A stretch of DNA of 64,000 nucleotides from Escherichia coli. GTDB lineage: Bacteria > Pseudomonadota > Gammaproteobacteria > Enterobacterales > Enterobacteriaceae. Under the pieces are notes generated by a model. It worked only from the letters and a program-made list of their open reading frames with translations. It was not told the DNA's origin and did not search any database. A program made the translations under genes and the position numbers. This document shows, in pieces, positions 11,792-52,345 of this stretch; within the stretch, counting starts at the first letter, position 1; each line of letters opens with the position of its first letter. The stretch is taken from the NCBI RefSeq assembly GCF_044324785.1, contig NZ_CP172127.1. One strand, written 5' to 3'.

Positions 11792-11964
11792 AAAGTTCTT
11801 TTGTGTTGCATTGCTGGCGTAAATGTCAGCAATGCAGCATTTCCTCACGATTCTCCTTTGACGATCGCACTTTTTGCTCGTTATGATGGCGTCGCTAGCC
11901 TCAGTAAATCCTTACTCCGGCGGTGCGCAACCTGTGCGCGTGAACCACTATCTGAATGCTCATC

Positions 11965-31090: not shown

Positions 31091-32179
31091 TCACGGCAGG
31101 CGGTGGCGAGCTTGATAATAAGCCTGCCAGTGAGCTTCTTTATGTGTAGCGACACGTTGTTCGAAGTAACGGCGCAGACGTGCGCGATCTTCTTCGTTAT
31201 CTTTGACGATGGTTCCGGCAATACAGTCCACCAGGTCGGCTGGCTCCCCCGCGCGATTCGCTAAAAACCAGGCGCGGACGCCCACAGCGTGGGCCACGTT
31301 CACGGCTTCAGCGGTGGACATAATCGCTGTCAGTGTATCCATTGACGTTTTCTTTTCGCCGTTGGCACGCAGATCGCGGAAGGTGCGTACCAGTAACTCC
31401 AGTACCGCGTCAGGCACTTTATGCGGAATACCGCTATGGGCCAACAAACGCGCCGAAGCACTGGCGACCAGTTCCAGCTCCTGGGCGAAATCCATAATCG
31501 GAAAGACAGTTTCAAAATCGAAGCGACGCTTTAGCGCAGCACTCATTTCATTGACGCCGCGATCGCGGGTATTGGCAGTGGCAATAATATTAAAGCCTTC
31601 CCGCGCATAGAGCTGACTGGCTTCACCAGTGAGTTCCGGCACCGTCATTACCCTGTCAGAAAGCATACCTAACAGACAGTCTTGTACTTCCAGCGGTGTA
31701 CGCGTTATCTCTTCAAAACGGACAATTTTGCCGTCGCGCATTCCCTGGTAAAGCGGGGCAGGGACCAGCGCTTCCGTTGACGGACCATGGTTGATAAGCA
31801 GGGCGTAGTTCCAGCCATACTTGATTTGATCTTCGGTGGTAGATGCGCCGCCCTGGATGGTTAACCCGGCATCGCCGCTAATAGCGGTTGCCAGTAATTC
31901 AGACAGGAGAGATTTTGCGGTGCCAGGTTCCCCCACCAACATCAAACCGCGCCCGGTAGCGAGAGTGACTAACATGCGTTCGACAGCGGAGGGACTGATC
32001 ACGACTTTACGGCTAATATTTTGCGCTTCGTCGCCAAGGATAAAAGCACGGGCCGCAGGCAAACTTAACTGCCAACCTGGCGGGCAAGGTGCGTTATCAT
32101 TTTGTTTTAATTTTGCCAGTTCATCGGCGTATAACACAGCGGCAGGCGGACGCTGCAGATGTTTATTCTGCGGTGACAT
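31091..32179 (-). CDS. yehL: MoxR-type AAA+ ATPase YehL
   Basis: 362 aa from internal ATG (MSPQNKHLQRP); Walker A GEPGTAKS. Confidence 0.85.
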   Translation of the reverse strand: MSPQNKHLQRPPAAVLYADELAKLKQNDNAPCPPGWQLSLPAARAFILGDEAQNISRKVVISPSAVERMLVTLATGRGLMLVGEPGTAKSLLSELLATAISGDAGLTIQGGASTTEDQIKYGWNYALLINHGPSTEALVPAPLYQGMRDGKIVRFEEITRTPLEVQDCLLGMLSDRVMTVPELTGEASQLYAREGFNIIATANTRDRGVNEMSAALKRRFDFETVFPIMDFAQELELVASASARLLAHSGIPHKVPDAVLELLVRTFRDLRANGEKKTSMDTLTAIMSTAEAVNVAHAVGVRAWFLANRAGEPADLVDCIAGTIVKDNEEDRARLRRYFEQRVATHKEAHWQAYYQARHRLP

Positions 32180-32290
32180 ATATTCATCCCTGAAATGTAT
32201 TAATGAAATAAACGATATTTTACGCGCAATAAATGTTTGGCGCATTAGTTGTTTGAGCGAAAAATATCTGGAAAGCAGATCACAGTAAAT

Positions 32291-32371
32291 AAAAAAACCT
32301 GCTGGTGAGGCAGGTTCTTTTATTTACTACAGTGACGCTAACTTGCTGATTGTGCAACATTTCGTACCAAC
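32291..32371 (-). ncRNA. orzO: OrzO-like antitoxin sRNA (copy 1), ~81 nt
   Basis: Minus-strand promoter (-10 TATAAT at 32383-32378, -35 TTGCAA at 32406-32401, 17-nt spacer); terminator hairpin AACCTGC-TGGTGAG-GCAGGTT 32296-32316 followed by U-tract on minus strand; 5' 18 nt complementary to toxin 5' UTR 32520-32537. Confidence 0.6.
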
Positions 32372-32377
32372 GAATAA

Positions 32378-32428
32378 ATTATAACCATATCCACACTCCA
32401 TTGCAATTCAGTGAATGAGATTTATAAT
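32378..32428. promoter_or_regulatory. divergent sigma70 promoters of zor copy 1 and its sRNA sharing one palindromic -35 hexamer TTGCAA
   Basis: Plus strand: TTGCAA (32401-32406)-16 nt-TATAAT (32423-32428); minus strand: same TTGCAA-17 nt-TATAAT (32383-32378). Confidence 0.55.
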
Positions 32429-32609
32429 CCTGCCCGTTGGGAGGTTGTGCCGGATCGGACCAATTTTAAGTCCTGGCTACCGGACGGGTGGTGCCGCAGG
32501 CGGTGCCCTGATCCGGAGAGCAACGTTTCGTACCAACATACGTAAACCAGTATCGACAGGCAGTGTAAGGGTAAGGTGCTGGTGTTGCGCTCCTTAATAA
32601 GGAGAGCGG

Positions 32610-32699
32610 ATGGACACGCTGACACAAAAGTTAACCGTGCTCATTGCTATACTGGAGCTATTAGTGGCTCTGTTACGGTTGATTGATTTGTTGAAGTAA
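32610..32699 (+). CDS. zorO: type I toxin, 29-aa hydrophobic peptide ZorO/ZorP family (copy 1)
   Basis: Manual translation: MDTLTQKLTVLIAILELLVALLRLIDLLK; AAGGAG SD 5 nt upstream; ~175-nt 5' UTR from predicted TSS ~32436; O versus P assignment between the two copies is uncertain. Confidence 0.8.
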   Translation: MDTLTQKLTVLIAILELLVALLRLIDLLK

Positions 32700-32720
32700 C
32701 GGGCAAATTGAAACGCATCT

Positions 32721-32745
32721 AAGGGGGAAAACCGCTTCCCCCTTT
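32721..32745 (+). terminator. rho-independent terminator of zor copy 1
   Basis: AAGGGGGAAAACCGCTTCCCCCTTT hairpin 22 nt after stop. Confidence 0.6.
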
Positions 32746-32897
32746 AATAAAATGATTACTGTTTTTATTAATTCATCATATAACTCATTTTTATTTATAA
32801 ATTCATCGATTTTATATTCAACGTACCATTTGACCGGGATGTGAATATTTATGGTGGGCTATTGGCAAAAAATATCTGGAAAGTAGATCGCAGAAAA

Positions 32898-32979
32898 TAA
32901 AAAAACCTGCTGGTGAGGCAGGTTCTTTTATTTACTACTTTGATGTTAAGTTACTGATAGTGCAACATGGCATCTCAAC
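32898..32979 (-). ncRNA. orzP: Orz-like antitoxin sRNA (copy 2), ~82 nt
   Basis: Minus-strand -10 at 32991-32986, -35 TTGCAA 33014-33009; terminator hairpin 32904-32924 with U-tract; 5' region complementary to copy-2 toxin UTR 33126-33146. Confidence 0.6.
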
Positions 32980-32985
32980 GAACGA

Positions 32986-33036
32986 ATTATAACCACCTCT
33001 GGACAGTGTTGCAATTAAGATAATGAGATTTATAAT
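32986..33036. promoter_or_regulatory. divergent promoters of zor copy 2 and its sRNA sharing palindromic TTGCAA
   Basis: TTGCAA 33009-33014; plus-strand TATAAT 33031-33036; minus-strand TATAAT 32991-32986. Confidence 0.55.
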
Positions 33037-33217
33037 CCTGACTGTTGGGAAGTTGCGCCGGATCGAACCCATTTCAAGTCCTGGCTACCGGACGGGTGGT
33101 GCCGCAGGTAGTGCTCTGATCCGGAGTGCAACATGGCGACTCAACAAACGTAAACCAGTGTCGACAGGCAGTGTAAGGGTAAGGTGCTGGTGTTGCGCTC
33201 CTTAATAAGGAGAGCGG

Positions 33218-33307
33218 ATGGACACGCTGACACAAAAGTTAACCGTGCTCATTGCTGTACTGGAGCTATTAGTGGCTCTGTTACGGTTGATTGATTTGTT
33301 GAAGTAA
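33218..33307 (+). CDS. zorP: type I toxin, 29-aa hydrophobic peptide ZorO/ZorP family (copy 2)
   Basis: Manual translation: MDTLTQKLTVLIAVLELLVALLRLIDLLK (one I-to-V difference from copy 1); same SD and UTR architecture. Confidence 0.8.
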   Translation: MDTLTQKLTVLIAVLELLVALLRLIDLLK

Positions 33308-33326
33308 CGGGCAAATTGAAACGCAT

Positions 33327-33734
33327 CTAAGGGGGAATACCGTTTCCCCCTTTAATAAAGCTATACTCGTCATACTTCAAGTTGCATGTGCTGCGACTTG
33401 AATTATCTAGAGTATATAATTCTATTTGTTGGTTGAATATATTCTGTAGTTCACAATTAAAAATTACTATTACAGGTTCAGGTGATTCGCCTCGTAATTT
33501 TTGCTCATCAATAAACTCATCTCTTATATAAATCAACGCATCATTTATTAGCGGGTCGACATCTTCTCGATCACGTTGATGAAATGTTGGACGTAGCCGG
33601 AATCGCTCCAGCCGGTAGACGGAGCCTGTAAATAATTCAGAGCGTTTATGGATCTCAAGCCTGAAGGAAAACGGCTCTTCAGGTACAGGGGCCTCATAGT
33701 CGTAAATAGTGACCAGCTCTTTTTGCACGATCAT
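33327..33734 (-). CDS. yehK: hypothetical protein (YehK-like), 135 aa
   Basis: ORF in the position of yehK downstream of yehI; identity by position only; 3' end overlaps zor copy-2 terminator. Confidence 0.45.
   Translation of the reverse strand: MIVQKELVTIYDYEAPVPEEPFSFRLEIHKRSELFTGSVYRLERFRLRPTFHQRDREDVDPLINDALIYIRDEFIDEQKLRGESPEPVIVIFNCELQNIFNQQIELYTLDNSSRSTCNLKYDEYSFIKGGNGIPP
33329..33353 (+). terminator. rho-independent terminator of zor copy 2
   Basis: AAGGGGGAATACCGTTTCCCCCTTT hairpin. Confidence 0.6.
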
Positions 33735-52227: not shown

Positions 52228-52345
52228 ACCAAACGACTCGGGGTGCCCTTCTGCGTGAAGGCTGAGAAATACCCGTATCACCTGATCTGGATAATGCCAG
52301 CGTAGGGAAGTCACGGACCACCAGGTCATTGCTTCTTCACGTTAT
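52228..52345 (+). promoter_or_regulatory. TPP (thi-box) riboswitch in thiM leader
   Basis: Canonical thi-box CTGAGAAATACCCGTATCACCTGATCTGGATAATGCCAGCGTAGGGAA immediately upstream of thiM SD. Confidence 0.85.

Follow-up and report, generated by a model that had tools for sequence, protein, structure and literature searches.

Zor-orz type I toxin-antitoxin systems were characterized earlier in Escherichia coli O157:H7 (Fozo 2010; Wen 2014, PMC3919570; Wen 2017, PMC5397157). For zorO-orzO of strain EDL933, toxicity of zorO, rescue by the small RNA (sRNA) OrzO and a requirement for RNase III have been shown (PMC3919570), and the leader mechanism of zorO was described together with its 174-nt 5′ UTR and the position of its ribosome-binding site (RBS) (Wen 2017, PMC5397157). 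Repression takes at least 15 continuous base pairs, or 17 or more if there is one internal mismatch, and since an OrzO with 6(1)11 pairing represses zorO, that geometry is sufficient (Wen 2014, PMC3919570). The V1 triplet reads GAA in OrzO and ACG in OrzP, and the specificity of V1 has been demonstrated (PMC3919570). Zor-orz resembles tisB-istR1 and shoB-ohsC: the genes diverge, the leader is long and structured, activation follows 5′ processing, and the sRNA pairs a long way upstream of the RBS, at what is probably a standby site (PMC5397157). Its toxin sequences and sRNA families are unlike theirs (the ohsC Rfam model matches orz weakly, at 33.6 bits versus a gathering score of 50), and full-length EDL933 zorO mRNA can still be translated, whereas tisB +1 cannot (PMC5397157). 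According to the accessible text of a 2024 survey (PMC11264685), two zor-orz copies occur in 42% of 2,212 genomes, the conserved zor and orz promoter hexamers are TTGCAA (−35) and TATAAT (−10) (Table 3), and the pairing region is variable.

We analyzed a window of 64,000 nt of E. coli DNA (contig NZ_CP172127.1) in which the space between yehL and yehK holds two tandem repeat units. These are very probably two intact zor-orz modules that work as in EDL933 and are insulated from each other. The family identity follows from the peptide, the sRNA of Rfam family RF02083, the promoters, the RBS position, the pairing site and the yehL-yehK location, which recur in both units. The system itself is already known and described, and the locus is an ordinary one. 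Its features are as follows (positions in the window).

31091-32245, minus strand: yehL, flanking gene
32258-32750: repeat unit 1, yehL side, zorO/orzO class; ends approximate
32291-32371, minus strand: orzO of unit 1, 81 nt (RF02083); its 3′ end is the terminator U-run
32378-32406, minus strand: orzO promoter of unit 1, TTGCAA-17-TATAAT (promoter scan; published hexamers)
32401-32428, plus strand: zorO promoter of unit 1, TTGCAA-16-TATAAT (promoter scan; published hexamers)
32436-32609, plus strand: predicted zorO 5′ UTR of unit 1, 174 nt; start placed from the published UTR length and RBS position, fits the −10
32508-32537, plus strand: EAP region (+73 to +102) of the unit 1 leader
32515-32520, plus strand: standby-like motif GGAGAG, unit 1 leader
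32520-32537, plus strand: OrzO pairing site of unit 1, leader +85 to +102
32599-32604, plus strand: RBS AAGGAG of unit 1, leader +164 to +169
32610-32699, plus strand: zorO ORF of unit 1, 29 codons plus stop, MDTLTQKLTVLIAILELLVALLRLIDLLK, ZorO with V14I
32721-32744, plus strand: zorO terminator hairpin of unit 1, AAGGGGGAA..TTCCCCCTT, short UUU tail
32751-32865: A+T-rich spacer between the units (alignments), conserved in O157 as well
32866-33356: repeat unit 2, yehK side, third class, most probably zorQ/orzQ; ends approximate
32899-32979, minus strand: orz of unit 2 (OrzQ-type), 81 nt (RF02083), 5′ end GUUGAGAUGCCAUGUUGC
32986-33014, minus strand: orz promoter of unit 2, TTGCAA-17-TATAAT (promoter scan)
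33009-33036, plus strand: zor promoter of unit 2, TTGCAA-16-TATAAT (promoter scan)
33044-33217, plus strand: predicted zor 5′ UTR of unit 2, 174 nt; start placed by homology with unit 1 and EDL933
33116-33145, plus strand: EAP-equivalent region of the unit 2 leader
33123-33128, plus strand: GGAGTG motif, unit 2 leader
33125-33145, plus strand: Orz pairing site of unit 2, leader +82 to +102
33207-33212, plus strand: RBS AAGGAG of unit 2, leader +164 to +169
33218-33307, plus strand: zor ORF of unit 2, 29 codons plus stop, MDTLTQKLTVLIAVLELLVALLRLIDLLK
33329-33352, plus strand: hairpin of the unit 2 zor terminator; on the opposite strand it overlaps the extended yehK ORF at that gene's 3′ end
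33327-33734, minus strand: yehK homologue (extended ORF), flanking gene

The repeat search returned a single direct-repeat family (32257-32556 and 32865-33164, spacing 608 nt), and global alignment of 32258-32750 with 32866-33356 gave 439 identical columns of 493 (89.0%), bearing out the two ~0.49-kb direct-repeat units proposed by an earlier reading of the window from its letters (the sequence-only reading). Gene order (yehM-yehL-zor/orz-yehK-yehI) is syntenic with O157:H7, and the yehL-yehK site is used in other genomes too. A short dispersed repeat with many short matches per genome lies directly downstream of the units (33358-33415). RefSeq carries zero features between yehL and yehK, both in this genome and in O157:H7, so the locus is really missed by standard ORF-based annotation, as had been claimed. 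An NCBIfam scan of the two peptides and the yehK-like ORF matched no family, which leaves ZorO outside the coverage of NCBI's naming models.

The EDL933 locus zorO-orzO/zorP-orzP (z3289/z3290) occupies the same yehL-yehK site with the same tandem two-unit layout and the same promoters, and the 174-nt leader, the RBS position, the 29-residue toxin and the divergent 81-nt sRNA are all as here. Both units place AAGGAG 5 nt before the ATG of a 29-residue ORF. Leader length was set by the start site as mapped in EDL933, which puts the RBS at +164 to +169, as published; the predicted 174 nt, behind TTGCAA-16-TATAAT in both units, match the ~175-nt 5′ UTR and near-consensus promoter suggested earlier, and the unit 1 zorO leader differs from that of O157 zorO at one of 177 bases. 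The GGAG(A/T)G element of the EAP region is likewise found in both units where it has been described. Exactly four sigma-70-like sites were found between 32100 and 33500, all at the positions expected for zor and orz; within each unit the orz and zor promoters have a palindromic −35 TTGCAA in common (32401-32406 in unit 1, 33009-33014 in unit 2). Downstream of the ORF, a strong 9-bp G+C stem is followed by just UUUAAUAAA (a 3-U tail), and the terminator scan of the region did not call the zor terminators; the hairpin of the "clean rho-independent terminator" described earlier is thus present, whereas "clean" does not hold. The predicted unit 1 transcript would run from 32436 to ~32747, ~312 nt, or ~284 nt without its first 28 nt, in agreement with published zorO bands of ~310 and 280 nt (PMC3919570).

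On the opposite strand, the divergent ~81-nt sRNA with its own promoter and terminator was found in both units, as the sequence-only reading had it. Full-length matches to the Rfam OrzO-P model (RF02083) scored 88.8 bits (32291-32364, minus strand) and 91.7 bits (32899-32972, minus strand) against a gathering score of 60, with E-values of ~1e-13 to 1e-15, and are far beyond chance. The orzO 5′ end was placed 7 nt past the −10 hexamer, and the unit 1 OrzO so delimited is identical to O157 OrzO (81/81 nt). It is predicted to fold into a small 5′ hairpin and a 12-bp terminator hairpin (−20.5 kcal/mol, z = −2.4); the unit 2 Orz folds at −20.8 kcal/mol (z = −3.5). Sub-threshold Rfam matches (ohsC, STnc370, Thr and Trp leaders, isrH) were discounted as the orz terminator hairpin or the dispersed repeat.

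It is scarcely credible that the repeat instead belongs to an unrelated repetitive or mobile element in which small ORFs and hairpins arise incidentally. The dispersed repeat next to the units, with its multiple copies per genome, would fit such an origin, but the units themselves correspond to a curated sRNA family and to a locus characterized by experiment, and come without a transposase or terminal repeats. Moreover, 26,354 of 26,376 places are chromosomal, nearly all genomes use one site, and the median for the unit 2 core is 1 place per genome.

The sequence-only reading had left the identities of the two copies open, and these can be assigned from locus alignments. In the accessible text of the 2024 survey, a locus belongs to a class when BLASTn exceeds 650 bits over the full locus (PMC11264685), which we took from the orz 3′ end to the zor stop; our O157:H7 reference loci came from strain F8492, not from EDL933 itself. 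Unit 1 (32291-32699) reached 716 bits at 98.8% identity with O157 zorO/orzO, confirming the expected match to O157:H7, and 509 bits with zorP/orzP, and its OrzO 5′ end (GUUGGUACGAAAUGUUGC) bears the V1 triplet GAA; it is assigned to zorO/orzO. Unit 2 (32899-33307) scored 517 bits with the O157 O locus and 563 with the P locus, both under the cut-off, and 725 bits (99.3%) with a unit of strain LD91-1 that encodes the A20S "ZorQ" peptide; the A20S unit is also present in strain CFSAN061769, again at 99.3% identity to unit 2. The unit 2 core recurs at ≥99% identity in 793 of 5,444 matching records and is therefore common. By these scores unit 2 is a third common class, neither O nor P, and most probably the published zorQ/orzQ, with the LD91-1 unit taken as a proxy for the authors' query. 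It differs in that its toxin has the ZorO sequence (A20), whereas the "ZorQ" peptide has A20S. The zorP/orzP class, present in O157, was detected in neither unit of the window (509 and 563 bits, no ACG V1 triplet, T3 in both peptides). The earlier match to the zorO-orzO/zorP-orzP pair therefore holds for the family and fails for the pairing of O with P: unit 1 is O and unit 2 the third class.

At the peptide level, unit 2 is identical to O157:H7 ZorO (UniProt ZORO_ECO57), and unit 1 differs from it by V14I alone; both peptides keep all six charged residues. Reading the I/V difference as the distinction between O and P was rejected: ZorP differs from ZorO by T3S, and strain A8 has V14I, a rare allele, on a P-type core too. 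Both alleles, A20S and V14I, were traced with short exact DNA queries. The exact 55-nt DNA context of V14I was found in 2 of 5,426 complete E. coli genomes, and the exact unit 1 peptide in one contig of a 15-billion-protein collection.

Most of the difference between the two units lies in the pairing segment, and each sRNA is therefore expected to silence its own toxin only. Cognate pairing falls in the EAP region (+73 to +102), with 18 contiguous pairs including one G.U in unit 1 and a 6(1)14 geometry with one A-A mismatch and one G.U in unit 2; both reach the published thresholds. The longest runs of the crossed sRNA-leader pairs, 9 and 7, lie below them, and duplex energies were −32.9 and −37.6 kcal/mol for the cognate versus −25.0 and −23.4 kcal/mol for the crossed combinations. 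A main role of the Orz sRNAs other than zor silencing, for instance on other mRNAs in trans, with the toxins secondary, is very improbable here. In K-12, where a zor toxin is missing, OrzP is nonetheless conserved and expressed, and multicopy zorO-orzO gives aminoglycoside protection independent of ZorO toxicity, as such a role would predict; yet no other target is known, OrzO repression of zorO has been demonstrated, and in the window each Orz has its intact cognate target beside it, complementary over 18 to 20 pairs.

Sequence identity, anatomy and pairing potential were seen directly in both units; transcript ends, processing, toxicity and repression are modeled on EDL933. Each module would be transcribed divergently from back-to-back promoters around the one −35 hexamer. 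The rightward transcript would be a ~310-nt toxin mRNA comprising the leader, the 29-codon ORF, which would encode a hydrophobic peptide of the inner membrane, and the terminator hairpin, and the leftward transcript the 81-nt Orz sRNA. As in EDL933 zorO, the 5′ end of the full-length leader would mask the EAP region and the RBS would lie in a stem. Loss of the first 28 nt may then uncover the EAP region, which is probably a standby site for ribosomes, and raise translation. Pairing of the cognate Orz 5′ end with the 3′ part of the EAP region would block standby loading and bring about RNase III-dependent decay, keeping the toxin off.

Thermodynamic folding agrees with parts of this scheme. In the predicted unit 1 mRNA fold, +1 to +21 pairs with +75 to +102 and the RBS is buried, with a probability of being unpaired, P(unpaired), of 0.06; across the predicted leader folds of both units this value is 0.06 to 0.16. 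On removal of 28 nt, P(unpaired) of the unit 1 Orz site rises from 0.36 to 0.50 in thermodynamic prediction only. The same opening of the EAP region was not reproduced for unit 2 by thermodynamic folding (P(unpaired) 0.37 to 0.24), leaving the processing step unsupported in silico for that unit.

The site also occurs in reduced form, which raises the question of decay. The orphan antitoxin of K-12 MG1655, orzPmg, shares its site, sRNA family and promoters with the window; K-12 has neither the toxin ORF nor the pairing site, whereas the window has two complete modules and zero P-type sRNA. K-12-type genomes retain orzP, both promoters and ~29 nt of the zor leader, so the statement that the pair is absent from K-12 is correct for the toxin genes and incorrect for the site. 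One or both units could likewise be decaying remnants with no working toxin-antitoxin pair: ~30% of E. coli genomes keep only orz at the site, having lost the toxin, and MG1655 showed no kanamycin phenotype when zorO-orzO was present as a single chromosomal copy. In a variant of this explanation, the V14I toxin, given the rarity of its allele, might be non-toxic, or unit 2 might be poorly repressed through the mismatch and G.U pair of its duplex. Against decay, promoters, RBS, the 29-codon ORF, the six charged residues and the terminators are intact in both units, V14I is a conservative change in a hydrophobic helix, and 6(1)14 exceeds the experimentally sufficient 6(1)11. The 6(1)14 geometry is moreover native to its class (the 793 records above), and O157 zorP/orzP has a similar native pairing, 6(1)13. 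We regard decay as improbable and retain two intact modules as the preferred reading.

The arrangement of the classes differs from that in O157, where the order is yehL-P-O-yehK; here the yehL-side slot has an O-type core and the yehK-side slot the third class. We define the specificity core as the orz 5′ end, both promoters and the sequence up to the zor leader pairing site. In unit 1, an O-type patch (~32330-32616) lies inside the backbone of the yehL-side "slot 1" (the P-position), where O157, K-12 and most other strains have P-type cores; the third class here takes up slot 2. This mosaic hints that the core may be an exchangeable cassette moved by gene conversion between two fixed chromosomal slots, which we offer as a tentative idea, possible rather than probable. 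No description of such slot-versus-core mosaicism was found in the accessible text of the 2024 survey (PMC11264685).

The locus is a textbook case of small toxin and sRNA genes missed by standard pipelines, and flagging it is useful for curation. Beyond the known system, it adds the assignment of its units to O and a third class, P being absent, together with the rare V14I allele and the evidence for core shuffling. Shuffling of cores between slots is relevant to the insulation of tandem type I modules; if the cassette idea is true, selection would favor mutually non-cross-reacting combinations of cores, not particular genes.

The region between yehL and the yehK homologue is a zor-orz type I toxin-antitoxin locus; this system is known and has been characterised well since its initial prediction as z3289/z3290 in E. 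coli O157:H7 EDL933. Experiments established a true type I pair in which overproduced ZorO is toxic and is countered by OrzO, whose 5' end supplies 18 nt of pairing; this rescue requires RNase III, and a 3-nt 'V1' segment keeps OrzP from acting on zorO (PMC3919570). The zorO leader of 174 nt hides its RBS (+164 to +169); loss of the first 28 nt opens the 'EAP' region (+73 to +102), a probable ribosome standby site that is also bound by OrzO, which blocks translation (PMC5397157).

A repeat search revealed one direct-repeat family only (32257-32556 and 32865-33164, spacing 608 nt), and global alignment of unit 1 (32258-32750, yehL side) with unit 2 (32866-33356, yehK side) gave 89.0% identity. 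The layout described in the sequence-only reading for 32258-33356 (direct repeats, 29-codon ORFs, RBS, promoters and divergent orz) was present in full, and its family identity is supported by the Rfam matches (gathering score 60) and by OrzO identity to O157. AAGGAG lies 5 nt ahead of the ATG in both units, and the four promoters listed below are the only sigma-70-like sites in 32100-33500. The locus neighbours yehM, yehL, the yehK homologue and yehI all lie on the minus strand.

Features in the window
11880-11960, plus strand: Peptidase-S11 RNA motif, Rfam 73.1 bits, above gathering score
32291-32364, minus strand: unit 1 orz, Rfam OrzO-P (RF02083), 88.8 bits
32610-32699, plus strand: unit 1 toxin ORF, 29 codons
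32752-32844, plus strand: 30-codon ORF (MITVFINSSYNSFLFINSSILYSTYHLTGM) in the A+T-rich spacer between units
32899-32972, minus strand: unit 2 orz, Rfam OrzO-P (RF02083), 91.7 bits
33218-33307, plus strand: unit 2 toxin ORF, 29 codons
33327-33734, minus strand: YehK with lost stop ('yehK-like' ORF), 93/105 identical to O157 YehK
33358-33415: palindromic element of ~55 bp (TATACTCGTCATACTTCAAGTTGCATGTGCTGCGACTTGAATTATCTAGAGTATA) between zor terminator and yehK
52229-52325, plus strand: TPP riboswitch, Rfam 71.2 bits, above gathering score
one per unit, rightward: zor promoter, TTGCAA-16-TATAAT
one per unit, leftward: orz promoter, TTGCAA-17-TATAAT

The palindromic -35 hexamer TTGCAA is common to the divergent zor and orz promoters (32401-32406 in unit 1, 33009-33014 in unit 2), so two RNA polymerases would compete for the same 6 bp; this might in itself couple transcription of the toxin to that of the antitoxin.

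The two units differ in class. Unit 1 Orz equals O157 OrzO across all 81 nt, including the V1 triplet GAA, and its leader is one base away from the O157 zorO leader. With the full locus delimited as in the 2024 survey, and against its class cut-off of 650 bits (PMC11264685), unit 1 scored 716 bits against O and 509 against P; it is therefore zorO/orzO. Unit 2 scored 517 bits against O and 563 against P, and is thus neither. Its sRNA 5' end is GUUGAGAUGCCAUGUUGC and its leader target GCAACAUGGCGACUCAAC. The survey also distinguishes zorQ/orzQ as a third class, with A20S as its common toxin variant (PMC11264685). Exact DNA queries for A20S alleles located this ORF in LD91-1 and CFSAN061769, within a unit carrying exactly the unit 2 pairing segment; unit 2, which encodes the canonical ZorO peptide, is 99.3% identical to the LD91-1 unit (725 bits). 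With that unit as proxy for the survey's query, unit 2 most probably belongs to zorQ/orzQ. Of the O plus P pair proposed earlier, the O half therefore stands and the P half does not. The unit 2 core is common (793 records at ≥99% identity). Another third-class variant occurs in the single-copy genome of E. coli Z0117EC0117 (L005, unit at 1182; 95.4% identity to unit 2), where the orz pairing segment GCAACATGGCGCCCCAAC and its own zor target GCAACATGGCGACTCAAC differ at three positions and yehK is frameshifted.

In-register alignment gave 18 contiguous pairs with one G.U for OrzO on the unit 1 leader, and 6(1)14 for the unit 2 sRNA on its own leader. Since 15 continuous pairs, or 17 with one internal mismatch, are enough for repression and an OrzO 6(1)11 construct represses (Wen 2014, PMC3919570), both cognate pairs qualify. 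In the crossed combinations the longest uninterrupted stretch was 9 pairs in one and 7 in the other; both contained five mismatches and formed weaker duplexes (-25.0 and -23.4 kcal/mol vs. -32.9 and -37.6 kcal/mol for cognates). The units should thus be insulated, each sRNA being predicted to control only its own toxin.

Start sites placed 174 nt upstream of each zor ATG, following the published leader length, fell 7 to 8 nt past the -10 hexamer and put AAGGAG exactly at +164 to +169. The predicted zor transcripts (312 nt, 284 nt once processed) match the published bands of ~310 and ~280 nt (PMC3919570). In the predicted unit 1 fold, +1 to +21 pairs with +75 to +102 and the RBS is buried; removal of 28 nt raises Orz-site accessibility, in agreement with published probing. 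The RBS is also buried in the predicted unit 2 fold, in which EAP opening after 28-nt removal was not reproduced. Both Orz RNAs are predicted to form a small 5' hairpin and a 12-bp terminator hairpin with a U-run. The zor terminators, which had been described as clean and rho-independent, have a strong 9-bp G+C stem with a UUU tail only, and neither was called by the terminator scan. On the plus strand, too, the orz hairpins (32296-32316 and 32904-32924) are followed by a T-rich stretch (CTTTTATTTA), and the scan called them as plus-strand terminators; the one at 32904-32924 could block unit 1 zor read-through before it enters unit 2 orz in antisense.

Around the units, yehK reads TTA for TAA where O157 YehK ends in ...EIE and a stop. 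The resulting 30-residue C-terminal extension runs across the repeat remnant further downstream and lies antisense to the unit 2 zor terminator, which it overlaps; RefSeq labels the product a hypothetical protein. The palindromic element, present in O157 but not in strain GN05505, accounts for the many short matches (a median of 5 places in each genome) and for a weak match to the Rfam isrH model; it presumably resembles ERIC/IRU repeat ends. The spacer ORF, open in O157 too with one substitution, is probably non-coding, because conservation there reflects close relatedness.

The zor ORF 3' end occurs in 3,391 of 5,426 complete E. coli genomes (median two copies where any), consistent with the 25% one-copy and 42% two-copy genomes given in the survey (PMC11264685). 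The usual two-copy arrangements among sampled genomes are P+O (O157) and P+Q (O111:H11, ST69, GN05505, LD91-1, CFSAN061769). The window's O+Q arrangement is found in at least about 55 and at most 78 records (≥99% identity over 97% of the query), and E. coli strain N3 (NZ_CP031609) matches the 1.2-kb region at 100% identity. K-12 was said to lack the locus. In K-12-type genomes orzP remains, with both promoters and ~29 nt of zor leader, before the sequence jumps to the yehK end; the toxin is missing, the locus is not, and the survey showed this orphan OrzP to be expressed (PMC11264685).

From yehL to yehK, O157:H7 carries zorP/orzP (peptide MDS...) and then zorO/orzO. ZorP differs from ZorO there by T3S, so the I/V difference noted earlier between the two peptides is not the O/P distinction. 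Informative sites identify unit 1 as a mosaic, with slot-1 (yehL-side, P-position) alleles at 32250-32286 and 32648-32758 and O-type alleles from 32330 to 32616. In O157, K-12 and strain A8 the same flanks, together with the 3' part of the ORF and the terminator, hold P-type cores. The V14I codon lies within the slot-1 backbone; strain A8 has it next to a P-type core, and with its exact 55-nt context it occurs in only 2 of 5,426 genomes. This pattern suggests that gene conversion has moved the specificity core from one slot to the other. A tentative proposal, which we judge slightly less likely than not, is that two fixed slots swap such cores as cassettes; if true, it would be a modest extension of published observations.
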